From assembly GCA_008632985.1 (NCBI GenBank), contig QPGO01000084.1, positions 124,001 to 188,000 of the forward strand: a stretch of 64,000 nucleotides of DNA, read 5' to 3'. The notes beneath the pieces were generated by a model that was given only the letters and a program-made list of their open reading frames with translations, searched no databases and was not told where the DNA came from. The position numbers were made by a program, and so were the translations under genes. This DNA comes from Psammoneis japonica (taxonomy: Eukaryota). Every line of letters starts with the position of its first letter. Positions within the stretch are counted from its first letter, which is position 1. Of the stretch, positions 1 through 50,471 are shown piece by piece.

Positions 1-3000
1 CTTGTTGCTGCTCACAATGGGATTGACGACCACCAGCTGGTTGGCATTCCTGTTGTCACTGCCAGCGGTGTCATCCACCCTCAATGTGGACCTGTCATTG
101 CCATCCTTCACCAGTGTGCTCACACTGGAAATGGCAAGACCATGCACTCTTGCTTCCAGCTCCAGGGGCACAAGCATGATGTCAATGACCAGCTGACCAA
201 GGTCCCCAATGGCTTGCAGTGCATTGCTGCCATTGACAGCTGTGTCACCCCCATCAATGTCAAAGGCACCATTGACGGCTGCATCATTCCCATCAACATC
301 GAAGGCCGAAGCCAAATGGGGAGCTTTTTTCCCCATGTCATTCTTGCTGGCAATGACACCTGAGACCCATCTGTCCTTGACTGCCAGCTCACCAACAATG
401 AGAAATGGCATGATGCCATGTCCAACCTTCAAGCCAACCCAACCACCAACCTCTTTGACAAGTTTGGCAACTGTCATGATCACTGGCATGTTGTTGACAA
501 TGCAGTGCTTGTGGACCCTGTCCTTGATGACCATGTCCTCCAATTTCTTCTGTGGGTGCCACAAGCACAAGATCAACCCCAAGGATCCCAACTGTGAATC
601 CCTGTGCACCTGCTTGGGCTTTCCTCCTGAAGGATGCTCTTTGCCACACTTTTGATTGCACCACACAGCATGCTTGAATGCCTGCCAGTGCAAACCTGAA
701 GAAGGTGTGCAAGTCACCCAAACCAGCTCTCAATGTGTCCACCAATGCAGTGAACCAGTTGCTGCTGACACTGTGTGCTCTGACACCCCTGCCATTGACT
801 CTGGATGATGTGTCAGCACATGGCTCTTTGTTGGCACAGAGTCCCTTGTCGCTGATGTGTGAGGCACCAAGGCTGACAAGGGGTTCATCAACATGCTCAA
901 AGGCAACATTCACAACCCTGGTGCTCTGTCCAAGCTCGTCAGTTGTTGTGCTCAGGTTGAGATCAGCAACAAGGTCCTTGACATCCTCTGAGCTCTCTTC
1001 ATGTTCAGCTGGCAAAGCAAGCCCACCTCACCAACAGCACCAGAATTTTGCTGAAAGCTGCTGCCAAACAGTGAAGAACATGGCCAACACCATTGTGGAT
1101 TGCTTTGAATCCCCGGACTGCACTTGGCTCCTTGCCCTCATGCACGTGTGCTTTGTGCTCAACTGCGGGGCTTCTGCCATGCTCTGCTGGCATGCCTCTG
1201 CCAAGGTGCTGTCTGGATCTACTCCCAAAGTCAGCCCCCTCCTCCATTTCAACAGTGGGAACCCTTGCACTGCCACCTGGACAATTCTGACTGGCCGTCT
1301 GAATGCTGCAAGTTGTGCTGTCACTTTGTTGGCACCGCCAAACATGTCAGCCATCAAATGACACCAAAGAGATTCTCTCTGACAACACTCAGAAGATGCT
1401 TTGCCACTCAAGTGTCCATTCTGCTGCTCGCAACCTGTGCTGTTGTCTGCTTGCAACCTGTTTCTTGATCCTCCTTGAAAAACATCTGCTGAACCCATCA
1501 TCAAATCTGACACCAACTCCAAGGATTCACCAGATTTGCCAGATGGGGAGGTGATCAGAATGCCCAAAATTCTGGTTTTTGACCCCAAGGACATCATTGG
1601 ATGCACCTTCCTCATGAAGCCACAAGAGGACAGACAGTGCTGCAGAGCCCACTTTGTCAAGGCCATTGAAAACCAAGACTGGACAAAAATTGGTGACAAC
1701 CAAGAACTCATCAATTTCATTTGCTCAGTCAACAACAAAAAGTGCACAAGGAAATCCTTGTCTGTGATGATGCCATGCACCACATGGAGCAAGAAGATGA
1801 GGATGCCACCATCCGCGGAAGTTCCAACACACCGGCTCACACAAAGGGTTGTTGAGACCTCACATGACCCCTCACTGAAAAGGCTCAAGCTGCCATGTCA
1901 TGCTTGAATGGGAGAGTGGGGAAATCACTTCTGAGCCTCTTGCCATCATCGCCAAAGATGACCATGCCACTTGTGCCATCTGCACATGCAAGTGCAGATT
2001 GCTCAAAGAAACCAATGGATGGAAATGCTTCTGAGCCACAGCCCTGCACCAGAAAAAGCCATTCCACATGTCCAGCCAAGCCAAGCTGCACTTGTTCTGC
2101 ACTGCACCATGACACAAGTGTGGGTGTGGAGTGCCCTGGGACCACAAGCACAGATTGGCCCTTGACCAGTGCAACAGCAGCTGCAAATGGGGAGACACAA
2201 TGGACCTTGAGATGGCTCAACTCAGAGAGTGCTCTGGAGCTGCATCCCTCCATGGTTTCCGGCTGACAATTTTCCTGGCTGAACTCAACAAACCAGAAAG
2301 CCACGACCATGGAGAAACTGTGCATTGTTGCAGGAACTGAAATGAGAGCATCCCAACGAGCGTTGCATTGTCCATCATGCAAATTGCGGGTTTGGATGGA
2401 CACCAGGAGGAAGACGGGGTGATCATCATTCAGCAAGTGCTGTCTTTGCTGCGACCTGGCATTTGGGGTCAATCCTCAAAACCATGGAGTTGCGGCAATC
2501 ACGTTTGTTGAGGGTGATGCCATGCCAACTGCATTGTGCCACAGCTGCAGAGAGGTGCTTGCAGTTCGGGGCTGAGAGTTTCATCATGACCAAGAGACAA
2601 ATGAACAGACCTGATTTTGTGTTGTTTTGGAAAAGACTGCTGCAGCACTCAGAAGGCTGGGTCACAAAATGTTCTGCAAGGCTTCAACAAATCGCTTTTG
2701 TGACAATCCCACAATGTTGATGTGATGCACAATGCTGCTGAAAGGCTTTGGCTTTGGACAGTGCTTGAGGGCGCGATCCCCGTCGTTGGCTTGTTCTGGA
2801 AGTGCACAATGGCACGTGTGCAACTTCTGCACAGCTCATGAAATCCATTTGTTGTGGAGTGCAATTCATGTCAATTGTTGCTGCAGTTCCACTTTCTAGA
2901 TGTAGTGCAGTCTGCAACATCTGATCTTTTTCATCAAGATCCAAACATGGCCACCACAGATGAAAGAGTCTTGAAGAAAGAACGTGTGTGGTCTTGCAGT

Positions 3001-3120
3001 TGCAGTCGAGACAATCGACTGCAAACACAGCAACTGACTTGACAGAGATCTGCAGGCCTCCAGGTGGCGACAGAATCACATCAGCCGACAGACAAAAGAG
3101 CATTGAATGTAGAAAATGAA
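1..3120 (+). mobile_element. Degenerate Ty1/Copia-like (CoDi-type) LTR retrotransposon pol remnant, TpA/CpG-depleted
   Basis: Integrase-like segment PHQQHQNFAESCCQTVKNMANTIVDCFESPDCTWLLALMHVCFVLN (~1025-1165) lies before an RT-like segment (ALDQCNSSCKWGDTMDLEMAQLRE...SLHGFRLTIFLAELN, ~2155-2290), giving INT-before-RT order. Many stops, frameshifts and deletions; LTR not delimited; end approximate. Confidence 0.7.
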
Positions 3121-3154
3121 CATGCCATCGTGAACTTGAACGTGTTTGAGCCAA

Positions 3155-4491
3155 TCAAGCACACAGATGCAGCACCGACTTGAAGACAGAGCATGCCCAT
3201 TGGAGGGGAGGGGCGCCAAATGTAAAGCTGGGCTTGGGAGTGGTGGCTGGCTTTTTGTCTCCCTTCGAGGTTGTTGACAACTCCGTGTTCTCTTCATCCT
3301 CCACGTGCTGTCGATTGGGATGCAGAGGATGCCTGCCGTCAGATCCTGTTGGCGCAGCAAAGTTGAAGCCATTGGTGCCAAAACGAGTGGCCATGCTGTT
3401 GTTGGTGCAACCAAACAATGCGGCAGGAGCAGGGTTGGTGGCGCTGTCACTGGCATTGCCAAACAGTGCGGCTGGAGCCAGAGCCGCTACGTTCTTGTTG
3501 GCACTGCCAAACAATGCGGCGGCAGCAGGATCCGCAGTGTTGTTGCTGGTGCTGCCAAACAATGCGGCTGGAGCAGGATCGTCAGCACCATTTTTGGCAT
3601 CACCAAACAATGTGGGTGGAGAAGGATTGGCCGTGGTGTTCTTGGAATTGCCGAACAATTTGACTGGGGTGGGAGCCGCTGCATCATTGTTGGCATCACC
3701 AAAAAATGTGGTTGCGGGACTGGCAGGAGCAGCCACATTGTCGAAGTCGGAGGAATCACCGCCAAGGGCAGCTGGAGCATGAAGACTGCGTTGGTGAGAA
3801 CCAGTTTGCTGCTGCAAGACAACATTGGGGCTTGCAGCAAAGTGGTTGACACACGTGGGAGTGGACCTCGTGTGGCTGGAGAGTCCACCCGAGAGGCAAC
3901 GGGAGATGTGTGTGCAGCACTGCCGTGAGCACACGTGCGTGGCGAGTCGGCTGTCCAGGGCGTCATGTGCTCGGACATTGAGGGCTCAAATTTCAAACTT
4001 TCAATGAACTTGTCATCGCAACCAGCTGCGTTGAAGCACATTGCAAAAATGTGCTTGAGAGACTCCATGTTGAATTTCGCGTTGCATGGAATCCGCTCAA
4101 TCTGAAAAGACGCGCGGTGGAAGAACCCTTTCGACCTGAGCTCTTTGACGTGTTCTTGGAACTTGGTGCATTGTGCATGCCCCGCCCCCGCTGCAGCCTT
4201 CAAGATGAGGTGGAAGATTTCCTTGTCATTGATGTCGTTGAGGTTGTCAATCGTCTTGAGCTTGGTGGTCTCCTTTGCAACTGCGGCGCCGAGGTTGAAA
4301 TTGACTTTGTTTGGGATCTGTACGAACGATTCCACCCTGCATTGCTTGGGCTTGAGGCGCTCTGCCCGATTCACGTCTTTGATTCGTCCAAGATGAACTC
4401 CAACTTCTTCCAGGGCTTTCTCGGCTTTTTTGAGGTCGTCGGCAGCCTCGGTGATGGCGGGTTCTTTAGAACGACGGACGTTTTCCGTCAC
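3155..4491 (-). pseudogene. Frameshifted ORF with FG-repeat (nucleoporin-like) low-complexity C-terminus
   Basis: ORFs 3487..4491 and 3155..3934 overlap in different frames. The latter encodes repeated APAALFGxxxN units and KPSFTFGAP. TpA-depleted. Confidence 0.5.
3405..3715. repeat. 48-bp tandem repeat, ~7 copies (16-aa LFG repeat on minus strand)
   Basis: ccaaacaatg-like anchor recurs at 3411, 3459, 3507, 3555, 3603, 3651 and 3699. Confidence 0.9.
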
Positions 4492-4999
4492 AATCTTGTG
4501 TGCTTCAGCGGCGAGCGTCAGTTTCTATCTAGACTATCTCTCCTGAATTGGTGATGTTGTTCGCTGTGCAGTGTGCAGACTCAATCATTTCTTGCAACTT
4601 TCCCGGGTCGTTAATCAACTCAGCAATGATTTGCGACCCTGTCGCATGGCCAGGGACGTTGAATGAAATACGCCTCCCAGCCACGAGCGGCGTGATCCTG
4701 CATCAGTGCTTCCGCTGGCAACAATAAAGGCCTCTCGTCATCGTTGCTGCCGTCGGCGGTGCGAAACGAAGAACTCGGATTAGGACTGTAGGAGTTGAGG
4801 CCAGTTCGAGAGCGCTTGCGAGCAGGAGCAAACATGGTTGAAACGACGGCGAGTGTTGTTTTGCGTCAACGTCTGCGGGTTGTGAGAGCGACGACGATGC
4901 GAGTCTGGAGTCTGGAGTCGTCTCATGGTAGATCTAACGAAAATCGTACGACGAATCTTAGCAGTCAACGATTGATCAATTGCCGCCACCAACTAGCAG

Positions 5000-5650
5000 T
5001 AGACTTGCGGCACCAGCTCAGCTTGCCTTTGCTCAGCCATCGGCTGAATCGAGAGCTCTGACTACTGCAGCAGCCGCACCTCCGTATCCACCAAGGTATG
5101 CAGCAACTGCCACCAGGCACGGGACCAGTGAGGCCAGGATATGCTCATCAGCAGCAGCAACCGGCACAGCCTAGTAGACCGCCTACAACTCCTCAACCAA
5201 CGTTTGCGCAGGAACGTTTGCGCAGATTCCACCAAAGACTGTAAAACTCATGGTGGCGGTACAGCAGGCTCCTCCGCCATCTGCGTATGCATCTTCGAAT
5301 CCGCGTTAGCAGAGCACTCCGAAGCCTACAATCCTCAACCGGCGGGTGGCGGTCCTTCGCAGCCGCAGTACAATTCTTAAGGAAGCCAAGCAGCAGCTCC
5401 GCCAGCCTTTGCAGGACAGCCGTAGTATCTGCCGCAACGGCAACAGCAGGCCTATGTACAAGCACCGCAACAGCAGCCTGGGTTTGCAGCACCGCCACCA
5501 CAATCGCATCCGGGACAGCAACCTCCGGCAACGACAAATTTGTTTGCAGTGGCGGCTCCTCCGTCATTGGCGCCGTGCCCCACCATCTGCCTAAACAATC
5601 CAAACTCGACATTGAGAAATGATCCATTTACGCAACTAGATGATGCAACA
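5000..5650 (+). pseudogene. Pro/Gln-rich coding-like fragment with stops and frameshifts
   Basis: Readable pieces GMQQLPPGTGPVRPGYAHQQQQPAQP and QQQAYVQAPQQQPGFAAPPPQSHPGQQPP are interrupted by stops. Confidence 0.35.
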
Positions 5651-6347: not shown

Positions 6348-8102
6348 TTAGTGGCTGAGGTCGATCTCACGAACAGTCGCTACTTCAGAGTATGGGTTAC
6401 AAGGGTCGGCTCCCCATGAGTCTAACAGCTTCACAAATTCTTCCTTTACCCCCCCAACAAGCACATCAGCGGAGAGAAGAAACTGATCCTGCAGCCATTG
6501 TCGTGTCCTTATTCCTTGAGTAACAAGAAGCTTACGAATGTCATTAAATCTTTCGTCGCAAATATCTATTGTTTCTGGATGCGAGGCGTTCCCCACAAAA
6601 TGATTTATATTCTCTCTCCCAAAGGGGGAAAGCGGCTCCTTGAGATGCAAAAAGTCCTGCATGCTGCTTCGAAAGTCAGCTGCCCTATCAACATTTGAGT
6701 CCTCGAGTTGCTCGACGGCGTAGAGAAATATCTTGAAAGGAGTTTGCTGCACCCTCATGTCACGCCTTTGGTCTAGTTCTTTCTGTTGCGAAGGTGTCAA
6801 TTCAGTCTTTCCTAGCTGCATCAAGAACAACTCAAACCGAGCTACGTCAGTAGAGACCCCTCTCCAACGATTTGAGCCAACGAGAGTTTCTGCCGGAGGG
6901 ATGGGCTCGTTACTGCCCTTGTCGTAAATTTCAGTCACACGATAGTTGTAAAAGCTCTGGAAAAATACAACGGGATGTCGTACACCAATTACCAGGCGGG
7001 CGTGTGGCGAGTGTTGCTTGAGACGTTCGATCCCTTGCCACGTTCGAAGCCCAGTAGGGCACTTTATTCCAAAATTTGAAGCTGGCTCGAGTTCAGACAG
7101 GGCTGTGTTCAATTTGGAGTATGCAGCAGAATCATCAAGATTTGGCTGAATGATATCGCATTGTTCCTTGTCGCTTATCGATGTTTCCACATGATTAGAA
7201 AAAGCATAGAGAAGAGTGGTCGTGCCACATTTTGGAAAGCCCGCAATGAAGAAGTCCAATGGTCGTCCAATTTCTGATTCTGCCATCTTGGTGCTATCCA
7301 CGTTATCACTTTTGTTGGCTGCGATCAGGTGAAGAGCTCCCTTGAACTTGTTTTGTCCATGGAAACCAAAGTCTTCTTTCATGATCTCATTGGTTAGCTT
7401 CGGGTTCTCATAGGTATGAGGTAGAATTGATTTCGTAAGATGTGCAAGATCTCTTGCGGAGTTACTGGGGCTATCGTCGTTTGTTTGAAACCTGCGAACA
7501 CAACTGTGTTTGAACCGACTTTGTAGCGCGTGATCCTCGTTACGAAAGTAAACCCAATCCCAACGTCGATCATTTCTATCCTTGGACAGTAGAGTATAGA
7601 GATTGAAAGGATTTCCTGAAGTGGATTCATTTCTTCCCACGAATTCAAATCTCCCCGAGTTGGATGGCTTGGTTGGAGTGTTGGGCGGCGGGTTGATTAG
7701 AGGGGCACTGCTTGGTGCCTTGTTAGTATTGGTTGGTTTTATCTCCAACGTGGGTGTGTTTTTCTCTGTTACACTTTGTTGGAGGGTTCTGTGCCAGAAA
7801 GATTCTTCGTGGCTTTCATCGACGACAACATGCAGTTTCTGCCGAGTTTGTCGCTTCGAGCTCCTGCCCCATTCATGTGCCGATCCCTTATGTCTACTGA
7901 CTCTATCTTTCTTTGTGTTGGCCCCTATTTTATCGTTGCTCACTCTGTATATCGTTCTTCGAAGATTTTTGTCAGCACTGTTTGTCGCTGCTCTTTGTCG
8001 CAAAGCGTGTTCGTCACCACAAGATTCGCCTGCATCCTTTATTCTTACGAGGATAACACAAAGGATAACAACGAAAGCTGCCAACGGCCCGAGGGTCTTC
8101 AT
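6348..8102 (-). CDS. Type II membrane sulfotransferase-domain protein (paralogue A)
   Basis: Uninterrupted ORF. N-terminal hydrophobic anchor after MKTLG (ATG 8102). PAPS-binding 5'-PSB motif FFIAGFPKCGTTTLL and 3'-PB-like VRHPV...SFYNY. Confidence 0.85.
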   Translation of the reverse strand: MKTLGPLAAFVVILCVILVRIKDAGESCGDEHALRQRAATNSADKNLRRTIYRVSNDKIGANTKKDRVSRHKGSAHEWGRSSKRQTRQKLHVVVDESHEESFWHRTLQQSVTEKNTPTLEIKPTNTNKAPSSAPLINPPPNTPTKPSNSGRFEFVGRNESTSGNPFNLYTLLSKDRNDRRWDWVYFRNEDHALQSRFKHSCVRRFQTNDDSPSNSARDLAHLTKSILPHTYENPKLTNEIMKEDFGFHGQNKFKGALHLIAANKSDNVDSTKMAESEIGRPLDFFIAGFPKCGTTTLLYAFSNHVETSISDKEQCDIIQPNLDDSAAYSKLNTALSELEPASNFGIKCPTGLRTWQGIERLKQHSPHARLVIGVRHPVVFFQSFYNYRVTEIYDKGSNEPIPPAETLVGSNRWRGVSTDVARFELFLMQLGKTELTPSQQKELDQRRDMRVQQTPFKIFLYAVEQLEDSNVDRAADFRSSMQDFLHLKEPLSPFGRENINHFVGNASHPETIDICDERFNDIRKLLVTQGIRTRQWLQDQFLLSADVLVGGVKEEFVKLLDSWGADPCNPYSEVATVREIDLSH

Positions 8103-8643
8103 GGCCGTGGTTTTCCAGAGAAGGAAGAAGAAGTAACTTGGACAGTGGTAATGCTCTCTATCTACCGGTAGAGAGTAGTCGTACGTCAAAACAAGAGAGC
8201 GAAAGCGAAGCGCAGGACAACAAAAAAGTGGCGCCGCAAACCCGGGAGCGATGAAACTAATCAATCATGAATATTTTGGATATCATCGCAAAGTGCCAGA
8301 GGGCAGTTAGCCTTTTCGTCAGTAAAATTTGTCCGGCGTCTACCTGTACAAGGTGGCGGTGGTTGAATCATCGTCCGTGGACAAAAATTGAGGGGGATAG
8401 GAAATTTGATGTCTTGTCAAGTTTGGTCCCGCTAAGACTATGACTTGGGACTACTACTCTGACTCATCTTGAATCTTGCGCTCCGTTTTTCTGTAGCCCC
8501 AGCTACTACGGTAGCTAGAGTAGAGAGTAGCTACTAGAGAGACTCTCAGCATGTTCAATTTAAATTTATAAAGCAGCTTTTGAGAGGAGCTCCATTTCAA
8601 CTACTGTATGCAAAGATAATGAATTAAAATTTGTTTCGGTCCT

Positions 8644-10218
8644 CTATCTTGTCTTATATTTTAGCTCCCCAGTTTGGGTGCAAGGATCTACAGACCAGGT
8701 GTTTAGAGATTGCAAAAAATGAGCTTCGTCCCCTGCCGACACATCCGGGCTCTCTAGGAAGGAGTTTCTAATCCACGCCTGTGTTTTCCGTCCTTGTTCC
8801 AGAAGAAGTGCTCGAGTGCTAGCGTATCTTTCATCGCAAATATCAATAGTCTCTGGGTGCGAGTTGTCTCCGACAAAATGGTTCTTATTTTCTCGTGAAA
8901 AGGGACCTAGTGGCTCATTGAGTTGAAGGAATTCCTGCATGTCATTTCGAAGCCTTGTGGATCTACTTGGGTCAGTATCTTCCAATTGCTCCACCGAATA
9001 CAGGAAAACTTTGAATGGAAACGGCTTGACCGCCATATCTGGACGTTTGGCTAACATTTCCATATCAGCCATTGACATTGCTGTTTTTCCTAGCTGCATT
9101 AGAAAAGCCTCGTATTGAGCATTGTCTGTGGATACGCCTTGCCAATCCTTGGGGCCAATGATGTCTTCCACCGGTGGTATCGTCGTGCGGCGATTCTTGT
9201 CGTAGATCTCTGTCACTCGATAGTTGTAAAAGCTCTCAAAGAAACGAACGGGGTGTCGAACACCAATCACAATACGGGCATCAGGAGAGTGTCTATGCAA
9301 TCTCTCCAACCCATGGAAACTTTTCAGACCAGATGGACACTTGATACCCCTCTTGCTTGAAGGGGAAGCGTCGAGTTCTACTAGTCCTTGGTTCAGATTC
9401 GTCATGGCTTCGTCGTCAGTTTTTGTCCTTGAAACAAGATCACAAACTTCATTATCGTGAATGGATGTCTCCTTGTGCTTTGAGAAGGCGTGAAGTAGAG
9501 TGGTCGTCCCACATTTCGGAAAGCCAGCAATGAAGAAGTCAATTCCACCTTGTACCTTTTTCGTAACGCTGTCCTCGTCTTCTTCCATTCCGAATTCCGG
9601 CTCCTCATCAGCTAGGTCTCTCCTCCACTCTTTAGCATGAGAATGACTTCTATAATGATGCTGGCTTCTGTACTCTATCCAATTTCCGTACCTACTATTG
9701 CAAGCGCAAGTATAGGATTGAGCGCCAAAGATTTGCTCCCTCGTGCCGTACTTGCTGTTCCAACCTCGGTTCTGGAATCTATTGACATACTTTTTCGGTG
9801 GTGGCGGTGGATATGAAAAGCTCATGGAAGCTGCTGAAAATGAACCATCTTGTAGCATTCGCCGCCAGAAATCAACTTCCTCGTTTTGTGATCCGAATGC
9901 GTTGCCATCTTGGTCCTCTCTGCCGCCATTAGAATGCCGCCTTTGGCTGGTATCATCTCCCACGCCACCATCTACCCTGAAGCTCTGATAGCGTAGCCCT
10001 GAAACCCGTATCCGCTTCCGCTTATCGTTGTCGTGCTGAATAGATTTTAAGTCGTGCGGAGTGGAAGGTCGATGATTCCATCGGCTTGCGGAAGTCCATA
10101 CTTTGGTCGTCCTTATCAGTAACAAGCTTCCCACTGAATCACTTTTGCTGTAACAAAGCCATAGGGCGACAAAGCATGCGCATCCGAAAATTGAGGATAG
10201 GACAATCGTCATGGGCAT
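8644..10218 (-). CDS. Type II membrane sulfotransferase-domain protein (paralogue B, tandem duplicate)
   Basis: Uninterrupted ORF with N-terminal TM segment; FFIAGFPKCGTTTLL and VRHPVRFFESFYNYRVTEIYDK. C-terminal half is clearly homologous to paralogue A. Confidence 0.85.
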   Translation of the reverse strand: MPMTIVLSSIFGCACFVALWLCYSKSDSVGSLLLIRTTKVWTSASRWNHRPSTPHDLKSIQHDNDKRKRIRVSGLRYQSFRVDGGVGDDTSQRRHSNGGREDQDGNAFGSQNEEVDFWRRMLQDGSFSAASMSFSYPPPPPKKYVNRFQNRGWNSKYGTREQIFGAQSYTCACNSRYGNWIEYRSQHHYRSHSHAKEWRRDLADEEPEFGMEEDEDSVTKKVQGGIDFFIAGFPKCGTTTLLHAFSKHKETSIHDNEVCDLVSRTKTDDEAMTNLNQGLVELDASPSSKRGIKCPSGLKSFHGLERLHRHSPDARIVIGVRHPVRFFESFYNYRVTEIYDKNRRTTIPPVEDIIGPKDWQGVSTDNAQYEAFLMQLGKTAMSMADMEMLAKRPDMAVKPFPFKVFLYSVEQLEDTDPSRSTRLRNDMQEFLQLNEPLGPFSRENKNHFVGDNSHPETIDICDERYASTRALLLEQGRKTQAWIRNSFLESPDVSAGDEAHFLQSLNTWSVDPCTQTGELKYKTR

Positions 10219-10466
10219 TCGGTTCGCACCGTAGGTGTCTTGAGAGAAAAATGTGGTGATAAATGAGGTATAAACGCTTTTTTCGGCGGGAATCAAAACC
10301 AGAACCTGCTCTTTCAAAACATTTATGACGGCAAAATTGGTCGGAGTTTCACTCCAAGTGATTCTCTAGTCATGACAAATTATTATAGGTTGGTCATAGA
10401 GCTCTAAGTGTTTTGCAAACACGTTAAGTGACAAATATATCAAAGTGACGTCGATAATACAACTAT

Positions 10467-10766
10467 TTAAGCCATGAAGGTATGAGTTAGCCGGGGTAGG
10501 GCTAGTTGGTCGCGCACGTTTGGGTTCGATGCAGCCGTGCAACTAGCCATACCCTGCAGGAAGAGCTGTTGGTGGCGCGCGAGCAGAAGCAACAAAGCAA
10601 AGAAAACGGCGTGGGTCAAAACGTTGTAAAATGACGCAACAACAAGCAGCGAGAAGAAACCCAACTTGACCCATGAATACAGCGCATACATATTGTCCAA
10701 CCACTTCAATAGTATCTCGTATTCCCAGCTTGTAGATGAGGGGACGGCGTTCGCGTTTCTCGCCAT
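10467..10766 (-). CDS. Small hypothetical membrane protein (99 aa)
   Basis: ATG-initiated ORF with two hydrophobic stretches in an otherwise intergenic gap; no recognised motif. Confidence 0.35.
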   Translation of the reverse strand: MARNANAVPSSTSWEYEILLKWLDNMYALYSWVKLGFFSLLVVASFYNVLTHAVFFALLLLLARHQQLFLQGMASCTAASNPNVRDQLALPRLTHTFMA

Positions 10767-11260
10767 GGTGTTGTTGTGCGTTATCGTGTTGTTTGCGCGC
10801 GAAGACCACGGGATCTATTTATCCGATAGTCACTGTGTTTTGGTAATAGTAGATATTTCACTATATCCAATCTGAAGTTATTTTGAGAAGCGCTTCGCGA
10901 CAACCCTGTTCGCACCGTTAAATAGAATTTTTTTTTATCCAGATTCCAGAGTTCTTTCGGGGTGTTCTGTCAGACTTTTGAATTGGTATATACATATATC
11001 AGAGGCATTAGCAAAATCAATGATATGTAATAGCTTCAGAGACCAATATAAATTTATGTTCCATGTAGACCACGTAGATTGTGTACCGGTGGAAAATCCA
11101 CGGCATGTCAATCACCCAGTAGTAATTCTACGTATATCCTACTTACACCTCACACACGTACACACACCTAGACAGTCTAATAACCGCGCACACGTGCGCG
11201 AGATTATTGAAGATTTTGTGATTTGTGACAGTCGCGTCATTACCGTACCGGTACATCACC

Positions 11261-20807: not shown

Positions 20808-23800
20808 TTACTCTGATTGCTTTTTGTTCTCTACCTGACTAACTAACCACTCAACCGTCATTTGACCTTTGGGGAGAAGCGACTTGAACCTGAGCTCATC
20901 CTGCAGCTTAGAGCATGCCCTGAACATCTTCAAGCCTACAACGACCTCTTCTTTGTCCTTCCATCGAGGATCCGTCTCGATAAAGTTCATGACCTGCTTG
21001 ACACTGTCAAAGAAATCCTCACGTTTTCTAAATCCTTCGCCGCGAGCAACGCCGGGTGGAAAGTAACAAAAGTCCGTCGGTCGATTGCCTCGATCCAACG
21101 TCCAACCAACACTTTCTAGAGCTTTCCAAACAATTCCATGAAACAATACAACTTTCGGCATAGGCTTTCCAGGGCTTGAATTGGGTGTCTGCGACTTCTT
21201 CTTAATGCTTGCCTTCGAGGATTTACGCCGCCTCACAATTTGAGGCAATTCTAGATGGTGATAAGGCTTCGTCGACGTCTCCACAACCTCCTTTGCGTCT
21301 TTGATGTCTACATTATTTGTAGCCTTTCCAGGGCTCGAGTTGGGCGTCCGTGACTTCTCCTCATTGCTTGCTTTCGAGGATTTACCCCGCCTCACAATTT
21401 GTGGCGATTCTGAACAGTCAAAAGGCAGCATCGACGTCTCCACAACCACCTTGGCGTCTTTGGTGTCTACTTTCGTAGCCTCTCCAGTGCTCGAGTCGGG
21501 CTTCTGTGACGCCTTCTTGCTGGTTGCTTGCGGGGGTTTACTCCGCCTCACAATTTGCGGCAATTCTGGATAGCCAAAAGGCTTCATCGACGTCTCCACA
21601 ACCACCTTGGCGTCTTTGGTGTCTACTTTCGTAGCCTCTCCAGTGCTCGGGTTGGGCTTCTGCGACGCCTTCTTGCTGGTTGCTTGTGGGGGTTTACTCC
21701 ACCTCACAATTTGCGGCAATTCTGGATAGTCAAAAGGATTCATCGACGTCTCCAAAACCCCCTTGGCACCTTTGGTCTCTTCTTTTGTAGCCTCTCCAGT
21801 GCTCGGGTTGGGCTTCTGTGGCGCCTTCTTGTTGGTTGCTTGCGGGGGTTTACTCCGCCTCACAATTTGCGGCAATTCTGGATGGCCAAAAGGCTTCATC
21901 GACATCTCCTCAACCACCTTGGCGTCTTTGGTGTCTACTTTCGTAGCCTCTCCAGTGCTCGAGTCGGGCTTCTGTGACGCCTTCTTGCTGGTTGCTTTCG
22001 TGGATTTACCCCGCCTCACAATTTGCGGCAATTCTGGATATCCAAAAGGCTTCATCGACGTCTCCACAACCTCCTTGGCACCTTTGGTGTCTACTTTCGT
22101 AGCCTCTCCAGTGCTCGAGTTGGGCTTCTGTGACGCCTTCTTGCTGGTTGCTTGCGAGGGTTTACTCCGCCTCACAACTATTTGCGGCAATTCTGGATAG
22201 TCAAAAGGCTTCATCTGCGTCTCAACAACCTGCTCGGCGTCATTGATGTCTACAGTCGTAGCCCGGCATAGCTTCTCTAGAGAATACACTGATTCCAACC
22301 CTAATTCGCGTTCAAAAACCTTGGATGCGAATTTGTGTGCGACGAACACCACTTGCCAAAGAACATACCATTCTTCGTCGGGAGAGGCAAGACCATTCAC
22401 AACATCTTTCAGCTTTCGAGGGATTGGTCGAGGAGTCAAGTGAACACGGCTTGGATTCGGTTCTCCAGAAGCAGCCGTGGTGTTGTTCTTCTGCGCAACC
22501 ATGAAGACACCATCAGTAGACACATGAACGTTTTGTGAGGTTGATTCGGCATCAACACCCCGGTCGATCGGCCTCCCCAAGGAATCGTACGCTTGAGCCA
22601 ACGCGGCTAACACGCCCATGGGAAACTGAGGAAAATTCACACAAGATAATGCAGCCGGCCCCATCACTGCCTCACATTGTCGCACATACGCCGCATTGAC
22701 GTATCGATCACGCTGAACGCCGGACTCAAACTGTAGCTGGCTGAGAAGTTCTGGACTTTTCGAACGGCAGGCACGCCGCACACAATCGGCAGCTGTACCA
22801 GCAATACTCAAAAGGGGTCCCAGGAGTCTTTCCTTTGTAAGCCGCCTCTCTTGCGACGAGGTACTGGGGATGTATACTTGCTCACAGAGACTCTTTGTGA
22901 GTTTCACCGCAATCGGGCACCACCTCGATTCGTCAAATGCATCCAACAAGCCTTTCTTCGATAATTCAAAGAGGCATTCTTCAGACATCTCAAAGGTTAG
23001 GCCCGCGTATACTGCGTCTTCGTCGCAGTTCAGTTTCTTCAAAACAACGTCAACATGATCCCACTCCATTTCTTTCAGTCGTCTCTTCATGTCATCGAAA
23101 ATACCTTGATATGGAAAAGATTCGGAAGCACCTGCACCTGGCTTCCTTGACAGTTTTTCAAGTCTCCACGCACGTTCTCCCAATTCCATGCTTATCCAAT
23201 GCAGACGGCGCCGGGCACACCACTGTAACACAGACGGCTGCTTGACCGTTTCAACCGCGACAATAGAGCGAGGGCTCGGGATTCTAGTCTGCAAGTGTTG
23301 AACAAAGTCGTTCGTAACACTCGCAACCGGCTGCAGTATCTTTTCTAAAAACTCCACCAACTCATACAATTGCATAACGGTCAACCTTTCAAAATAATGC
23401 TGAAGATCGTGCCGCTCGAGAATATTTCGTTTCAAGCGAGTCGCTTCGTGGTCGTCGCCGCGAAGACCTTCGTTTAAATTCCTCTTTCCATACCCCTTGC
23501 GTTCCCGAGATGCTTCGTATGAATCATAATAGTCCACAAAGAGTTCGACCGTTTGGTTCTTTTGCAAGGACGTTGCTATATCCAAGTAGTAATGAACCGT
23601 TCTTCCGTCCTTCTCGAGCGCTTGAACATTTTGCTGGAGCTCTTTGTTATAGCCCACCTCGTTGACGTACATCAACATATCACCAAACGTTTGAGCATAC
23701 GCATGTGGCTCGCCCGTTGCATCGCTTGTAACGTCGATAATCTGTTCTTCTCCATGCAGCTTTTCACCTACGCCGAAGTTCCAATCAGACGGCTCGTGGC

Positions 23801-25534: not shown

Positions 25535-26804
25535 TAATACGAAATACCTATCAATTGTCATAATTAAAAGTAGCAAATTTCATTTACAATTTTTTAGTCA
25601 ACCTCAACAAAAGTTCAACAGAAGTGGCGCGGTTCGATCGGCACCACGTAGAACCTACGGACTTCTCAGTACACACAATTCTGACGACTGACAGACCAGG
25701 TAAAACGCAGAATCACGTCAAGTCTGACGATGGCTAATTACCGCCACTGACGGCCACAATGGACGTCAACATAACGAAATGAGTAACTCCATGTTTTGTA
25801 TGTGCATCGTGTATCATTGCTGAATGGAATTTAGGATGAATTCGACTGAAAATCGGCGAAAGGATGATGTTGTGTTTCGCGCGGCGTTGGTGCGTAGAAA
25901 CGCGTAGATCATGTGCCAGAGAGCAGAATTTTTTTGACGCAAAAGATTCTCACAATCATTTGCTTTGCTCGTCTTGTCCATGCTCTTCATCAACACTGTC
26001 ACAGCTCCCATCAAACATCTCTACTGTCAATGCAAGAACCAGATGCATCCCCAATCACACCGGGGATGAATCTGAAGCGTCTGCTCAACCGCCACCGGAG
26101 CAGACGTCAGTTGAGCTGCAGGGTCTCGTTGAAGAGACATCGGCATCTCATCGCAGCGTCGTGCAGTCTTCATTTCCCTGGGCACCTCAATTGTGACATT
26201 CGCAAGTTGGCTGTCAACACGGCACCCTTTCCCCGGCTGCACTTCTTCATGGTTGGCTTTGCACCCCTCACGAGCCAAGGATCCAAGCAGCACAGCGTCC
26301 TTTCCGTCCCCGGGTTGACGCAGCAGTGTTTTGACGCCCGGAACATGATGAGCACCGTGGACCCCCGCCACGACCGCTGCTTGACGTGTGCTGTTCTGTT
26401 TCTTGGCCAAATGTCGGCCAAGGAGGTGGCCGAGCAAATGCTCAACATGATGAGCAAGTGGCGTTCTTCCTTCGTGGATTCCGCAGAACGTGAAGAACTC
26501 CATTTGTGACATGCCTCCGACGGGTCTGCCAATGTCGAGCACCTTTGTGGGCAATGCCACGGCCATGTAGAAATCATGGACTCGAGTCGTCAGTCAGTTC
26601 ATTGCTGTTTCATGGAAGCAAAAGCAATCATTTTGATTTTCGATTCTTGCCGCCATCACATGACGTCAGAGCACTGGCCTCTTCGCACATCCTGCTACGA
26701 ACAGAAGCTCGCAACTTTTGTTGGACTTTTGTTGAGGTTGACTGAAAAATTGTAAAAGAAATTTGCCACTTTTGGTTGTGACAATTGTTGGGTGTTTCGC
26801 AGCA
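25535..26804. mobile_element. Non-autonomous long-TIR element (Pack-type) carrying a beta-tubulin fragment
   Basis: 95-bp ungapped inverted repeats at 25535-25629 and 26710-26804 (15 mismatches by eye). TSD not found. Confidence 0.7.
26158..26580 (+). pseudogene. TUBB: Beta-tubulin internal fragment
   Basis: [37 protein letters not shown]...[21 protein letters not shown]..., then after a frameshift [21 protein letters not shown]. Confidence 0.92.
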
Positions 26805-26824
26805 TTCTCAGAAAAATCCGATTT

Positions 26825-27039
26825 TGGGGACGTCTCCAGACGACTCCAGCCAGCTGCTGGTCGAAGAATCTTGTGTGGGATTTGCACTGACAGAGTCTGT
26901 CAATCAATGCATTTGAGGTTATGGCCAGATTTGGTGAACGCTGGACGGACTGGACGCACGTAAATTGTACGGGTGAAACCCCGTAAACGCACTGACAAGC
27001 AGACGTTTTCCAGCCAGCAGCTGGCTGGAGACGTCCCCA
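26825..27039. repeat. Short inverted-repeat element (MITE-like)
   Basis: tggggacgtctccag[acgactccag]ccagctgctgg (26825-26860) is the reverse complement of 27014-27039 apart from a 10-bp insert. Confidence 0.55.
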
Positions 27040-27254
27040 GATTTTCAAAAAATGTCGGAAGCACGTTTGTTTTGAGTGGCGTGTGATGCTGTACACACAA
27101 TCAAGTCACAGCGCAAATTTTAACCCTTAGGGCCCTAGCTAGACCCTGTCCAAACCAGGGTTAACTAATTGCAAAGTTTTCTGCAGCAATCAGATTGCAA
27201 TCAGTCGATTGCTCTCTGCGCAAGAGCGCACTCCGCGCAGGAGAAAAGCCCGCC

Positions 27255-27621
27255 TGCAGTATGCGACTGTTATATACATATTTATGATTATATATTATTT
27301 ATATGTCAATCGTACCACAGTCGTGGATGCGTACAAAGGACAGAACGATCACACAGAGTTGATCGGATGTCGAGAATTGCAAATACGATCGATTGACGAT
27401 GTTGACATCTTACGTGTCAATAGCAATCGTATCCGGACAATCTGTTGTCACGAATATATTCTCCGAAAGGCCTTTTGTCTGTAGAAGCAGTACAGAAGCT
27501 TTAGGCCATTGAGAACTCATTCGGAGAAACCAAAAATCACAGAGTAAAATCCAATCTTATAATTTCCACTTTTCGTACACTATTCTACTTTCGTTTACAC
27601 TCGTTCTTCGAGCATAGTGCA
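27255..27621 (+). repeat. 5' LTR
   Basis: Direct repeat of 31634-32000; one difference seen. Confidence 0.95.
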
Positions 27622-31633: not shown

Positions 31634-32000
31634 TGCAGTATGCGACTGTTATATACATATTTATGATTATACATTATTTATATGTCAATCGTACCACAGT
31701 CGTGGATGCGTACAAAGGACAGAACGATCACACAGAGTTGATCGGATGTCGAGAATTGCAAATACGATCGATTGACGATGTTGACATCTTACGTGTCAAT
31801 AGCAATCGTATCCGGACAATCTGTTGTCACGAATATATTCTCCGAAAGGCCTTTTGTCTGTAGAAGCAGTACAGAAGCTTTAGGCCATTGAGAACTCATT
31901 CGGAGAAACCAAAAATCACAGAGTAAAATCCAATCTTATAATTTCCACTTTTCGTACACTATTCTACTTTCGTTTACACTCGTTCTTCGAGCATAGTGCA
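31634..32000 (+). repeat. 3' LTR
   Basis: Direct repeat of 27255-27621. Confidence 0.95.
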
Positions 32001-33849: not shown

Positions 33850-34537
33850 GCCTCGTCGGGATTGCGCTCGGGCAAGTTACAGAGCTTGTGGGGCTTCCTG
33901 GGGTGGGCAAGACACAATTCGCCATGCAGCTTTGTGTCGATGCTCGGCTTCCCAGACAACAAGGTGGAGTGCAGGGCGAAGTTGTGTACATTGACACCCA
34001 AGGTACTTTTAGTGCCGAACGGTGTCACGTCATGGCTGGAGTCTCGACACTTTACGAAGAAACTACCGCTCATACTTCTCTTTGACCGATACACTATTCT
34101 GAACGGAATCCACGTCTTTCGGGCATTCGATCAAGACGCTCAAATGGCTACACATTGACTCTATCGCCTTTCATTATCGGGGTTCTCACGATGACTACAT
34201 GGCGAGGACGAGATCACTTACAAGCATTGACGGATTCTTGACCAGATTGGCAGTGAAGTTTGATTGTCACTGTCAATAAATGACTACCAAGGTGGACTCT
34301 ACTTCACGTAGTACCAACAGCTCAAGAGTAGTTCCTGCCTTGGGGGCATCCTGGGCGCACAATTGTGCCAATCGAATCATGCTTTCTCGAGTTGACGGAG
34401 AGCCATCGACCAGCAGTGCACGCCAATGTCATCTTCTCACCTCGGAGAATTCGGCATTCGTGACATTCGACAAAAGCCCTGTGCCACTGGCTCGTCACAC
34501 GGACTCTGCGGCAAAGCGGCCACGGATACAATACTAG
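33850..34537 (+). pseudogene. RAD51C: RAD51 paralogue (RAD51C-like) pseudogene
   Basis: GQVTELVGLPGVGKTQFAMQLCVD (Walker A), VYIDTQGTF, IDSIAFHYR and MTTK...VPALGASWAH, broken by frameshifts and deletions. Confidence 0.8.
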
Positions 34538-34763
34538 AGACAAGAGAATCAAAGCCACGTACCAAAAGGTCTTTTACTTCAGTACCGACTTCCGAGCCGT
34601 AGATTCTCGCTTGTTTGCATTGCGTCACTGGCTCGTCATACGGATTCTGCGGCAAAGCGGCCACGGATACAATACTAGAGACAAGAGAATCAAAGCTACG
34701 TACCAAAAGGTCTTTTACTTTAGTACCGACAGCACAGCCGTAGATTCTCGCTTGTATGTATTG
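34485..34763. repeat. 141-bp tandem duplication (2 copies)
   Basis: cactggctcgtca...tagattctcgcttg starts at 34485 and again at 34626. Confidence 0.92.
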
Positions 34764-39284: not shown

Positions 39285-40376
39285 GAGTAAAGGGAAAAAA
39301 GTGTGTCACAAGTGTGTCAAGTGTGTCAGTGTACCATGCCATCACGTAAACTCTACACAAACTGCATCCGGGTGACACACACTCGTTTACTTATGGGTGA
39401 CACACTTAAAAACATAAGGGTGACACACTTACTGACTCACCTTTTTACCGATTTGAATTGCCCCTGACACACTTATTTTTCAATTTCTACAGCCCCCTTG
39501 CCGGTACACAAACATGTAGAATGCACGAAAATCACGACCAAATTGATGGCGGAAAAGGGAAAAGTGTGTTGTACGATATTATGTACCAACGTCTATGCAA
39601 CCAGAATTGGATTAGAGTTTTATGTTTAATCCCGCGGATTTCCGCAGTACTGACCGCGTGGATTTCTACACTGTGCGTTGAATCATCCACGCCTTTTCGT
39701 ATGATGCGAACCACAAAACATCGAAATAGCAAATCGACGCCGACCAACAGGAGCTTCATTTCTTCCGCAACCAACTCTTTCTCTCCTTGTTTCTGCTCTT
39801 CACCAAAACTTGACAAAAACTCTGGTCACACAAAGAAATTAACAGCACTCGTTTTTCTTTTGTGTCTGCCAAATTGTGTCCAGAACACTGTTTCTACAGG
39901 ACTCTGGTACAGATTTTGTGTAGAAAAATTGTGGCACCTGGTTGTCACTAATTCTGCTTTGCCAGTGGTGAACACATTGATCTAGTGTGCTCAGAGCACT
40001 TGCACTGGTTGGAGAAAACCACGAAGAACACCAGCAGGGAAAAAGTTGGCTCATTTCTGCACCAACAAACTTTTCTCACAGCAAGCCCAGGCGCCGGTCG
40101 CCGCCCCTTTCTGGAAAGCCCCCTGCTCCTCTCCTGTTCAGTGTCGTTCCCCAAGAGGCTGAGAAAGTTTTTTGTTCAGATCTGAGCCCAGTGCACAGCA
40201 CTGCATGGTGAGTTCCATCCACACTTTGCAGCTTCTTGCTGGTCTTTGCATTTTTGCAAAAAGGAAGTCTGGCCCACCCGCCGGACGCGGCGGCCCAATT
40301 TTTGGTTTTGACAGACAATCTCAACTCAAGCTTGTTCAACAAATCTTTTCTCCTGAAAAACACCATCAGCTGAGCC

Positions 40377-42420
40377 ATGAGCACCTCCAAGGGCGAGCCT
40401 GAGGATGGGCTCACTCCCCCCCCACAAGCACAGCAAGGCTTCTTTGCTCAGTTTGTGCAGCCCAAGCTTTTGCTGGAGAGGATGGAGTTTGAGCAACGCC
40501 AAAGAGACCTGCTTTTGATGGTGAACAATGCAGCTGGCACCAATCTTGTGCCTCCTGACCTTGCCACACCTTGGCCTGCTCCAGCTCAAGCTGGCTTTTT
40601 GCCAATGCAGCCCAGCTCCAGCCAACCTGCGGCCCGCAGAGCTCAGGTGTCACAGCTGTCGCCGTCCTCCGTTGGCAGGAAAAGCACCCAATCACTGGGG
40701 CAGCCTCACTCTGCTGCCAAAAGCTTCCCCTCTGCCAAAGCTCTGTCTGGCACTTCAGACCTGGGCCCATCTGCTGCCTCTGTCCCTGGCTTGTCCAACA
40801 TCAACGTGGGCTTGCCCGAGCTCCCCAACTCCCACTCTCAAGTGTGGTCTGTTGCTGGAGATTTGCCAGGCCGCTGCCCAGGTGTTGGCTGGGCAATGGG
40901 AGTCTACTCTTGTGTTGAGCGTGGCACCAAAAAGACAATTTGCAAACACTGCTTGGGTGTCCACATTTGCACAGGTTGCAGCCTTTTTGTTGAAAGGCCC
41001 CGCCAGCCACAGGGTGGAAAAAAGAAGTTCATGCCTCCCATGCCATCAAAGCTGGTGTGCCCAAACTGTCCAAGCAACGCAGAGGGCAAGGTGCCAGCAA
41101 TGAAGCACATGCCTTGCACCTGCACAATGACCTTCACAAAGGATGGAGGCTCTGCTTGGCTTGTGCAGCACAAAGGAGCACACAAACACCCCAAGCCCCC
41201 GCCATCAAAGTTGACGCCTCAAGCACAAAGTGCGTTTGACAATCTTGTCCATTTGGCTCCAGAGGCAACTCCATCACAGCTCAGGGTTGGCAACCAAACC
41301 AGGGCACCAGTTTCAAAGCTGCACCCATCATTGTTCAACTTGGACAGAGCGAGTTATTTGCGCCAAAAGGCGCTGAAGCCCATGTCTGTCCGCTCCTCAA
41401 TCGCAGAGCTGGCAAACTTCAGAAATGATGTGGACAGATCCTTCATTCGAAGTGAGCAACTCACCACAGAAAATCAACACATCATTGTGCAAAATGATGA
41501 CATGATTGAGCTGTTGAAAGAAGGCAACAGCCCCCTGCAAACAGACTCTGTGGAAGGTTTTGTTTTTGATCCGGACTTCCAAGGTGAAATCAATGTCACG
41601 TTCACCTCAGGGTTCGACCTCACCCTGCAAATGTGGACCCCTCTTTGCATCAGCATTCTGTTTGGGAAAACAGAAGCCCACTGCAAGGTGCACTGGCAGG
41701 CTGTGCTCCAGTGCACACGAGCTGAGTCGTGGCCACAGTTTGTGGACGAGTTTCCTGGCAACACCAGTGACTTCTCAGATGCCATTCGGAAGGGTTTTTT
41801 TGCAGCCATGAAAGTGTTTGCAAAAGAAAAGTTTGACCAGGCAAAGGTTGCAGATGAAGAAACCAACCACCTTTGCAAGTTTTGCAATGTTCACTTTGAG
41901 AGGTCACGTGCCAGAGTTGCCCGCAACAGAGGTGTTGTCTCTGCTGATTTGGAGGGCGAGTTTGACTGCCAGGTAAATGAGATGAGGTCATTTGCACAAG
42001 GACAGTGCGAAAAGTTGGAGAGCAGCTGCAAACTGTTCTTCAAGTGCTTCCCAAAGGCCACTTCTTGGTTAAAGTGGCACCTCAATCCCAAACGAGCCAC
42101 AATTTTTTTCGATGCTTGCAAAAATCTCAATGAAAGGCAGGCAAAAAAAATGACAGCCTTTGTGATGACACCAATGCTCAAGAGAATGTTGGGAAGCGTT
42201 TTCAAACATGCACAGTCAGGAAAAAAATGACAGTTGGAGAAACGCTTCTTCATGCATGGAAGTTCTGCAACTCCGATCAACAAGACAGGAAGGCAGTTCA
42301 GGCTGGGCTCCCCACTCGTCATGGCGCTTTTCAGACAGTTGAGAGTGGCTGCAACAGTCCAAGGAAAAGGAGCAAAAAGCGCAAGTTCACAAATGATGGG
42401 AGAGCTCCTGACATGTCAGA
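40377..42420 (+). pseudogene. MULE transposase with GCM-like Zn/DNA-binding domain
   Basis: CLGVHIC..C...RP...CPNC..HMPC...HKGAHKHPKP; DDE-core-like LQTDSV, TSDFSDAIRKGF, CNVH (CxxH), WLKWH; DTNAQE follows a frameshift in an A8 run (~42143-42150). Confidence 0.75.
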
Positions 42421-42559
42421 AAAGCTGCTCAAGCGATCACGAAAAACTTCCAAAAAAGACGCATCAACAATGCCAAGCAAGACACAAATGCAAACATCAG
42501 TCACAGACTTCTACTCTTGGGATGACCCCAATTCCATGATGGCCAGGATGTTTGACCCA

Positions 42560-44897: not shown

Positions 44898-45209
44898 ACT
44901 CATTTTGCAGCCAGGACCTTGCTCATTTGGAGAGCGATGCTGTGACAAAAGCACAAAGGGTGCTCCAGTCACTGTTGGACACAGAAACAAGCAGCGCCCC
45001 CCCTTGAGGGCATCGCCAGGCAACCAGGAGAAGAGCTGCCTGGTGCCCCAAAAAGCTCACTTCCATCTGACTTTTTTGGCTGTGTGGAGACTTGTTTTGT
45101 CACATCACATTTTACCACATCATTTTGGTTTGTGACAAAATTGCATTTCATGTCACTTGGTTACGTGCACATTGTGAAAGTGTGGCATTTAATTGTGTGT
45201 TTGACTCAA

Positions 45210-46000: not shown

Positions 46001-46023
46001 CACATCAAGGAGTTTCTGCACCA

Positions 46024-47217: not shown

Positions 47218-47480
47218 AAACGATGTGAATGTGAACTTGGACGGTGTGCACCGCAGTGGGTGGCCGCGCGTCAGCTCAGAATTCTGATTGCATCGTGTGG
47301 TGGTGGCTCCTCTTCACATGCACACGTGGCAGCGTGTGCGGGCCTTCTGTCACTGGACGTCACCGTGACGTTGTTTTAATCGCACTGGACGAAACGCGCG
47401 CAAAATTGCACGTAAAAAATTGACACACTTGAGTGGCACACTCATGACACACTTGATGACACACTTTTTTCCCTTTCCCC

Positions 47481-50250: not shown

Positions 50251-50471
50251 GAATGAGGCAGGGCGCTCGCGAGGTTGGAGAAAACGGCATGTAGACTACG
50301 AAGTCTGGCGGGGCCCTCGTCCGTCCGTCCCTGTCACCTTCAGCCCGCTTCCCGCCGTTCTTCCATGCCACGCACATCTTGAATGTACAGTTAGCATCAT
50401 GCCATAACGGTATCAATCGTAGTGTTGTTGTTGACTTGTGAACTATTTCTGTTCTAAGCTATGCCATAATC

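Follow-up and report, generated by a model that had tools for sequence, protein, structure and literature searches.

Fast loss of TpA and slow loss of CpG as two clocks of a probable shared domain in a 64-kb window of Psammoneis japonica

How can TpA be nearly absent from stretches of DNA in which CpG is plentiful? The question is raised by a window of 64,000 nucleotides from Psammoneis japonica (GCA_008632985.1, contig QPGO01000084.1, positions 124,001 to 188,000), which in our labelling is G000:C81:124001-188000 of a 91-Mb eukaryotic assembly, C81 being the window's contig; positions given without a contig are those of the window. An original prediction, made from the letters alone, had described halos lacking only TpA (TA below) around cores lacking both TA and CpG (CG), and had proposed that TA conversion is a second process acting earlier, faster or further than CG decay. 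We consider, with a probability of roughly 0.6, that one silencing domain with a fast TA clock and a slow CG clock explains both kinds of DNA, the two losses being separated mainly by rate inside a shared domain, more than by place.

The three zones that had been named as TA-poor and CG-rich are real. Positions 3750-4520 hold 2 TA and 48 CG in 771 bases (2.6 and 62 per kb), 25906-26910 hold 4 and 50, and 47200-48000 hold 4 and 51, compared with 21-42 TA and 47-85 CG per kb in nine undepleted open reading frames (ORFs) of the window; the TA count of the first zone would be improbable (P(<=2) = 4e-4) even if only 16 TA per kb were expected. The named cores do lack both dinucleotides, with 5 TA and 22 CG in the 2001 bases of 43-45 kb and 8 TA and 28 CG in the 6001 bases of 58-64 kb. 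When the window is divided into 400-bp bins, the observed/expected ratio (o/e) of TA lies for the most part between 0.3 and 1.1 where DNA is gene-rich; in depleted blocks it is 0-0.1, and TG plus CA rises there to 1.6-2.0. Over 320 bins of 200 bp, TA and CG o/e are correlated but not tightly (Spearman 0.66), and a TA-only class is present: among 106 bins with at most 1 TA, 67 hold at most 3 CG and 15 hold at least 8 (two of these 15 sit in undepleted background, which is chance level). The reverse is rare, since only 5 of 76 bins with at most 3 CG keep at least 5 TA.

A two-state hidden Markov model (HMM) segmentation of 544 kb on five contigs gave the same one-way relation. Of 155,189 CG-low bases, 154,240 (99.4%) lie inside TA-low segments and 949 outside, and 73,888 of 228,128 TA-low bases, about one-third, are not CG-low. 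CG loss is nested in TA loss, and DNA that has lost CG only is practically absent. On C81 (264 kb, 528 bins of 500 bp) we counted 98 both-lost, 40 TA-only and 31 TA-lost bins with middling CG, together with 9 mildly CG-low and 1 CG-only bin; the equivalent figures for C6 (200 kb, 400 bins) were 122, 6, 25, 2 and 1, and the TA-only share is therefore region-dependent. The picture of halos around cores holds for some cases but not as a rule. The two longest TA-only blocks on C81 (112.6-120.1 and 232.2-239.5 kb) are coreless and carry long retrotransposon frames, recognized by an RVT_2 domain in the first and by eye in the second; many TA-only blocks are whole young retrotransposons, and the zone near 26 kb, a captured tubulin fragment, also lacks a core.

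The edges of cored segments bear on whether TA loss reaches further as well as faster. At 58 such edges, the TA edge lies more than 100 bp outside the CG edge in 33 and inside it in 3, the median overhang being 149 bp and 13 overhangs exceeding 500 bp. When both losses were given a single sharp edge in a control, the medians came out at -2 to 50 bp, with 6-30 of 90 edges above 100 bp and 0-8 of 90 above 500 bp; the rims are hence real but modest, partly method noise, and exceed the same-boundary control only moderately. Several core edges have no rim at all, and the window holds both kinds:

48030-50291, no strand assigned: both-lost core followed by a short CG-rich, TA-free rim (50170-50291, with 0 TA and 11 CG in 122 bases), from the bin table.
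55286-56568, no strand assigned: small both-lost core, nearly rimless, with overhangs of 9 and 34 bp.
57899-64000, no strand assigned: both-lost core with a rimless left edge, where a CG-low overhang of 28 bp was found.

These edges are the natural ground for an alternative in which the TA mutator follows a broader mark, such as a histone mark or an RNA guide, beyond CG methylation, so that rims are edited and unmethylated. The overhangs are what it predicts, as are the smooth rise of CG over 2 kb beside the first core of the window and some copia flanks that are TA-only and then normal (L134 and the C81 copy), and CpG has no mention in the main text of a preprint on TpA hypermutation in the alga Bigelowiella natans (Mettrop et al., bioRxiv 10.64898/2026.01.13.699255). 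We nevertheless think it unlikely. A simulated single exposure yields the same L-shaped path of TA against CG, and one that fades yields the same rims; the named zones have themselves lost some CG (7 of 37, 5 of 24 and 4 of 8 sites in the comparisons below); and both losses skip and enter the 5' ends of elements together. The claim that TA conversion acts further thus draws weak support from the overhang, with the shared 5' sparing and the near-absence of CG-only DNA against it.

The rates that a shared domain requires were read from a young copia family with 277-bp long terminal repeats (LTRs), comprising the element at G000:C81:111844-118954 and 20 sister copies (L115-L134), for which the best 20-21 matches to an already converted copy were taken from 421 candidates. 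Across 20 copies and 2.9 kb, 61% of 65 TA sites have been lost compared with 3.7% of 225 CG sites, and over the body of 16 full-length young copies the mean losses are 63% for TA and 4.8% for CG, a ratio of about 20, so that the TA process is indeed the faster one. Nineteen of 234 copia TA sites are nearly fixed as lost, and some shared losses may be inherited. The slow process can already be seen in the TA-only copies, where C>T at CG amounts to 14.7 per 1000 compared with 0.9-1.8 at other C, about 10 times background. Comparison of the two LTRs of 20 elements gave differences at 146 of 524 TA positions, 29 of 800 CG positions and 13 of 4079 others; all 146 TA changes are transitions, with no transversions, which is about 100-fold the rate at other sites, uncorrected for saturation. 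At a further 30 sites, one LTR has TG and its partner CA.

The LTR pairs also show where conversion is withheld. TA survives in the 5' LTR only at 135 sites and in the 3' LTR only at 11, and CG at 24 and 4, a direction no different from that of TA (p = 0.27). The first 750 bases of copia have lost 6 of 730 CG sites and the body 372 of 7737, even where the 5' end lies beside a both-lost core flank, and in three copies with a converted 5' end the CG loss there is 5 of 134 compared with 1 of 596 in the 5' ends of the other copies (p = 0.001). In most copies the same 750 bases at the 5' end escape both losses, and where one loss sets in there, so does the other. In the window, the end lying 5' of the main frame is likewise spared at 4525-4838, 25540-25635 and 39285-39990, which with copia makes four cases. 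Eighteen of 20 copia 5' flanks were TA-poor before insertion, through insertion preference or sampling, and these flanks are therefore a poor test of spreading.

Seven before/after pairs, which share references and were summed by hand, gave the same order of rates, with 158 of 203 TA and 44 of 195 CG converted, and 1 TA and 16 CG arising in the reverse direction. A repeat at 10483-11213 is intact in the window (TA o/e about 1), and its copy on C140 has lost 36 of 53 TA and 5 of 44 CG, that on C81 46 of 53 TA and 14 of 42 CG. The window copy remains unconverted despite having copies, and repetition alone is therefore insufficient for conversion.

The first named zone lies in a dead gene beside a dead retrotransposon:

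1-2983, forward strand: both-lost core made of a decayed copia-like pol region and the end of a multi-copy repeat, with 1 TA and 22 CG in 1-2399.
2984-4525, no strand assigned: TA-free rim with graded CG, single-copy from about 3190, with an HMM overhang of 1484 bp.
3859-4524, reverse strand: coding frame of the dead gene, of an unnamed family (HMMER, 8 hits with E <= 0.001, the best 9e-12).
3158-3985, reverse strand: FG-repeat frame over a 48-bp tandem array (3411-3711), matching Pfam Nucleoporin_FG at E = 1.1e-8.
4525-4838, reverse strand: 5' part of the gene, normal in TA and CG (8 TA and 22 CG in 316 bases).

The core matches the copia pol at G000:C81:114.8-117.1 kb over 19-481 and 578-2223 with 67-69% identity; other contigs of run X1 match 2436-3187, so the repeat end reaches about 3187, and the CG-low segment ends at 2983. 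The zone, given as 3750-4600, is TA-poor as claimed, although its true span is about 3000 to 4525 and CG is graded within it: CG o/e is about 0.15 in the core, 0.36-0.6 at 2200-3200, 0.52-0.66 at 3200-4000 and 0.90-0.93 at 4001-4400, while TA stays near zero throughout 2400-4400 and returns at 4526. This rim is the fourth longest among the 58 edges. In genome searches that give a lower bound on copy number, 3700-4600 has a single DNA match, itself, and the protein search likewise found it single-copy; the same DNA and protein searches for a parent returned only the region itself and one weak match of 24%. In run X1, which is possibly the source sample and so offers a partial check on artefacts, contig depth is flat at 64.6 over 3259-4902, one contig covers 3072-6400 with no differing letter, and no second allele was seen over 3200-4900 in contigs, which drop variants.

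The homologues of the 3859-4524 frame are named only as hypothetical proteins and belong to no Pfam family; a word-based protein search for the family found none among 1774 candidates, and the Atlas gave one match at 0.77. Seven of the eight homologues were aligned, P0005 being omitted as a repetitive coiled-coil match. The frame has no Tyr in 222 amino acids, whereas each homologue has 2-11 within the aligned stretch and undepleted ORFs contain 2.0-3.4% Tyr. Of the homologues that have a residue at the position in question, 4 of 7 have Tyr where this frame has Cys62, 6 of 6 where it has Cys163 (both codons TGC) and 2 of 6 where it has Cys169. Conserved Tyr codons now read Cys, and the TA loss is therefore a TA>TG conversion in place rather than a matter of codon choice. 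In the 5' part, a six-frame reading places frame breaks near 4660 and 4530, the match contains two in-frame TAG codons, and 4639-4586 is weakly matched (E = 0.11) in a different frame; the gene is most likely a pseudogene, an intron being the rival explanation for the breaks, and the FG-repeat frame probably supplies its 3' part, read in a different frame. The first 310 or so bases of the gene are spared from TA loss, and we propose that the domain extends about 1.3 kb from the dead retrotransposon into this single-copy gene and stops about 310 bases before its start. Just upstream of the gene, 4960-5560 is a low-complexity multi-copy stretch with normal TA, matched at lower identity by other contigs of runs X1 and X2.

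The second named zone is a captured gene fragment within a small inverted-repeat element:

25540-25635, forward strand: left inverted-repeat arm of the element, TA intact, an 85% inverted match to 26704-26799.
26143-26611, forward strand: captured beta-tubulin fragment, a coreless TA-only zone, whose intact counterpart on C65 matches at 91%.
26704-26799, reverse strand: right inverted-repeat arm, with 6 of 7 TA converted and 0 of 3 CG changed to TG or CA.

The zone had been given as 25.9-27.1 kb and is indeed TA-poor and CG-rich, but it lacks a core, none of 1014 bases being CG-low, and TA is back at about 26920. Relative to the C65 parent, the fragment has changed 4 of 4 TA to CA or TG and 7 of 37 CG to TG or CA, with transitions at 15 of 383 other sites. 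The parent is itself already TA-poor (o/e 0.17), and part of the TA-only signal is therefore inherited. A target duplication of the element was looked for and none was found.

The third named zone spans the right end of a transposon and the flank beyond it:

39285-47480, forward strand: 8.2-kb DNA transposon with terminal inverted repeats and a both-lost core as its interior.
39285-39990, forward strand: left end, spared in the window copy (32 TA kept), and the before-state for two converted copies.
47150-47480, reverse strand: CG-rich right end, the first half of the zone, with 5 of 24 CG lost.
47489-48030, no strand assigned: TA-free flank past the element, the second half of the zone, with 2 TA and 34 CG in 47482-48030.

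The element, like its copy on C88, is bounded by a 9-bp target duplication, and its match to GCM is weak (E = 0.17); we take it to be Mutator-like, a name that leans on general features of the superfamily. It contains a broken transposase-like region on the forward strand and a convergent frame at 46027-47313 on the reverse strand. Copies on C88 (near-full) and C80 (internally deleted) are mostly 94-97% identical, and C16 carries a short derivative. In the left 700 or so bases, C88 has lost 25 and C80 26 of the 32 TA present in the window copy, and of 26 CG the window copy has lost 3, C88 7 and C80 5, giving a TA:CG loss ratio of about 6 for this older, partly saturated element. At 11 of the 24 TA sites lost in both copies the outcomes differ; the conversions are therefore independent and took place after transposition, which fixes their direction. 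With ratios of about 20:1 in young copies and 6:1 here, TA loss is a mutational process separate from CG decay, as had been proposed, and both converge on TG and CA. In the window copy, the right end shows the same share of CG loss as the interior (6 of 26 and 14 of 49), and its CG richness is therefore by descent. A 98-bp piece of the flank has 2 of 2 TA and 4 of 8 CG converted relative to its relatives, and CG decay has already begun in or beside all three named zones.

These comparisons leave little to an account without any mutator, in which codon-biased coding DNA, or an assembly or base-calling artefact, produces the pattern. Two of the named zones are coding-derived and the tubulin parent is TA-poor, as such an account would have it; the exchange of Tyr for Cys at conserved sites, the conversion of 4 of 4 and 6 of 7 TA against intact partners, the different outcomes at one site in sister copies and the unchanged run X1 sequence make its probability close to negligible.

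Under the reading we prefer, silenced DNA (transposons, captured or dead genes and the adjacent flank) would be exposed to two mutational processes: a fast mutator that changes A:T to G:C at the TA steps of chromosomal DNA, on either strand and one site at a time, and a slower C>T decay at CG. TA would be nearly exhausted when only 5-25% of CG is gone, so that DNA of low cumulative exposure would look TA-only, be it an insertion that is still young, an edge that was reached only recently or carries a weak mark, or the CG-rich end of an element; old or strongly marked DNA would lose both. One domain with two rates would therefore give a TA-only class without the need for a wider TA domain. The CG clock would be deamination of 5-methylcytosine, and the domain would be set by a chromatin mark or by methylation itself. 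Several points weigh against all this. The copia sample is biased toward converted copies, and across copies TA and CG loss are only weakly correlated (Spearman 0.31-0.44, p 0.09-0.24). A wider TA domain would give the same overhangs. The simulated rim has a CG value of 0.66-0.73 compared with 0.87 seen at similar TA, and the simulation fits only if the TA:CG ratio is at least 20 or the starting sequence was CG-rich. The TadA/ADAT-like genes that the genome contains are expected tRNA editors and prove nothing.

What kind of agent would act at TA? Counted per strand, conversion depends on which base follows TA (T 0.48, C 0.38, G 0.14, A 0.12, with the same trend in the seven before/after pairs) and not on which precedes it (0.27-0.37). 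Among surviving TA sites, TTAA is enriched 5.2-fold and CTAA 3.1-fold, ATAT is at 0.02-fold and ATAC is almost absent, and A>G at AA, CA and GA (1.6, 1.4 and 2.0 per 1000) is background. Both strands are hit, with 14 TG and 11 CA in one Mutator-like copy and 15 and 11 in the other, and a mild sense excess at 46 self-complementary sites (240 TG, 191 CA); same-strand runs were not seen (0.509 compared with 0.520 permuted). TA conversion thus acts after insertion, on both strands, with T-A-pyrimidine preferred. The pyrimidine bias would fit a TadA/ADAT-type preference, and we infer, at about even odds, that the agent is an adenosine deaminase of the ADAT2/TadA type, which would produce inosine in the DNA itself. 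L136 (G000:C26) and L139 (G000:C38) are TadA/ADAT2-like deaminase frames, and L135 (C79) has a deaminase-like domain with further sequence behind it; all are candidates only, from five of nine deaminase matches that were read. The genome also has 27 matches above the cut-off to PF00145, the C5 methyltransferase domain, without assignment to a DNMT family; such domains, like TadA/ADAT genes, are expected in most eukaryotes and name no agent.

Given that TA is palindromic, targets on A and on T are indistinguishable and the lesion may fall on T instead. This leaves room for an alternative in which silenced DNA acquires a base modification at the TA step (6-methyladenine or oxidised thymine) that mispairs or deaminates with no dedicated deaminase. 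Hits on both strands without runs are also what a TA-specific writer would produce; thymine oxidation leads to T>C, and thymine in repeats is modified in some protists. Against the idea, spontaneous decay would be unusually fast if it ran at about 100 times background and ahead of CG decay, and known eukaryotic 6-methyladenine sits at ApT; we regard it as quite unlikely. Still more improbable is that T:G mismatch repair after deamination of methylated CG recruits a polymerase of the Pol eta type, which leaves A>G patches around lesions. It would link both losses and give halos, and converted TA is in fact slightly more frequent around CG sites that have been lost (effect 0.015, p = 0.019). Non-canonical mismatch repair with Pol eta targets WA motifs (PMC4139959), yet AA is not raised here, TA changes are almost only transitions and there are no same-strand runs.

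Other candidates were rejected. RNA editing of the ADAR type followed by reverse transcription does not account for hits on both strands, for LTRs that differ 135 to 11, or for conversion of a DNA transposon and a single-copy gene, and a transcription-coupled model, suggested by the 5' sparing, does not account for a transcribed 5' leader that is spared or, again, for hits on both strands. Fungal repeat-induced point mutation (RIP) makes C>T changes at CpA and so creates TpA, needs duplicated sequence, is premeiotic and depends on RID. Here TpA is destroyed by A>G rather than gained, C>T at CA is 0.85 per 1000, and the seven pairs hold one TA gain from TG or CA. As to duplication, single-copy DNA (3190-4525) is converted over 1.3 kb, but beside a repeat. 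What RIP and the process here share is hypermutation by transitions at a particular dinucleotide, with repeats ruined and flanks sometimes affected too (PMC7296669).

The closest system that we found is that of B. natans, where TpA hypermutation of integrated viral DNA was described (10.64898/2026.01.13.699255): in a subset of lines new mutations arise about 1000-fold above background, giant-virus or virophage DNA is targeted, and an ADAT2-like deaminase is proposed but unproven. As there, A:T>G:C transitions are confined to TpA and give TpG and CpA, and foreign or silent DNA is hit regionally, single-copy targets included, with host genes spared; converted here are copia, the Mutator-like element, the captured tubulin fragment and the dead gene, and undepleted ORFs keep 21-42 TA per kb. 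The preprint reports de novo mutations in two viral insertions where TpA is still abundant (Rho 0.45), whereas here conversion is near saturation over transposons, captured genes and flanks. Its main text has neither a CpG analysis nor a 3' preference, and the observations here go beyond it in the nesting with a CG decay about 20 times slower, in the T-A-pyrimidine preference and in the spared 5' ends. The chemistry is of the kind recently reported for B. natans. Looking for accounts of TA-directed mutation in diatoms or in repeats, with limited coverage of subscription literature, we came upon this preprint alone.

In diatoms, transposable-element islands, young copia included, are CG-methylated by DNMT5 and the rest of the genome is unmethylated (PMC9998398). 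This agrees with the island layout here and with a C>T rate about ten times higher at CG than at other C, and it would explain the slow clock only; the passages of that work on DNMT5 hold nothing on TA. Adenine base editors derived from TadA make A>G changes on DNA with a preferred TAC motif (PMC8065034), which matches the T-A-pyrimidine preference; as described there they are engineered and guided, and the homologues of this genome are candidates for a natural chromosomal role. A tentative extension, to which we give less than even odds, is a natural DNA adenosine-deaminase defence, steered by the CG-methylation signal, as an old eukaryotic counterpart of RIP and APOBEC on A:T that is shared with Rhizaria. 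It would edit T-A-pyrimidine on either strand where chromatin is silenced, run about 20 times faster than CG decay, be barred from promoter-proximal DNA and leak more than 1 kb into single-copy genes. If such a shared-signal defence is real, the ratio of TA to CG loss would be a two-speed clock for dating silencing.

As far as we found, a single preprint on one alga is the only published account of TpA hypermutation, and it gives no enzyme or targeting rule. The rules added here are testable and narrow the choice of enzyme: nesting with CG decay, a roughly 20-fold speed, T-A-pyrimidine, both strands, no processive runs, shared 5' sparing and leakage into single-copy DNA. The link to DNMT5 methylation can be tested directly in diatoms, where DNMT5 knockouts exist (PMC9998398). 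Dating by LTR divergence would overstate ages in TA-converted elements. Erasure of TA strips all Tyr codons and deletes TAA and TAG on both strands, and long overlapping Tyr-free frames therefore arise that mislead gene calling. Such frames, antisense ones included, occur in 1-2475 and 40374-44897 and are not evidence of genes.

Elsewhere in the window, two tandem sulfotransferase-like genes (6351-8264 and 8647-10365, 65% alike over 725 bases) are both unconverted. Tandem arrays at 21161-22263 (156 bp, 7 copies, in a 1223-amino acid frame) and 34485-34763 (141 bp, 2 copies) are unconverted as well. Next to the tubulin element, 26815-27060 is a short inverted-repeat element with copies of about 74% on C81 and C88 that has kept a few TA. 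A 367-bp direct duplication (27255-27621 and 31634-32000, 99.7%) has kept its TA, and the surrounding 28.4-33.2 kb is AT-rich (GC 0.36-0.42).

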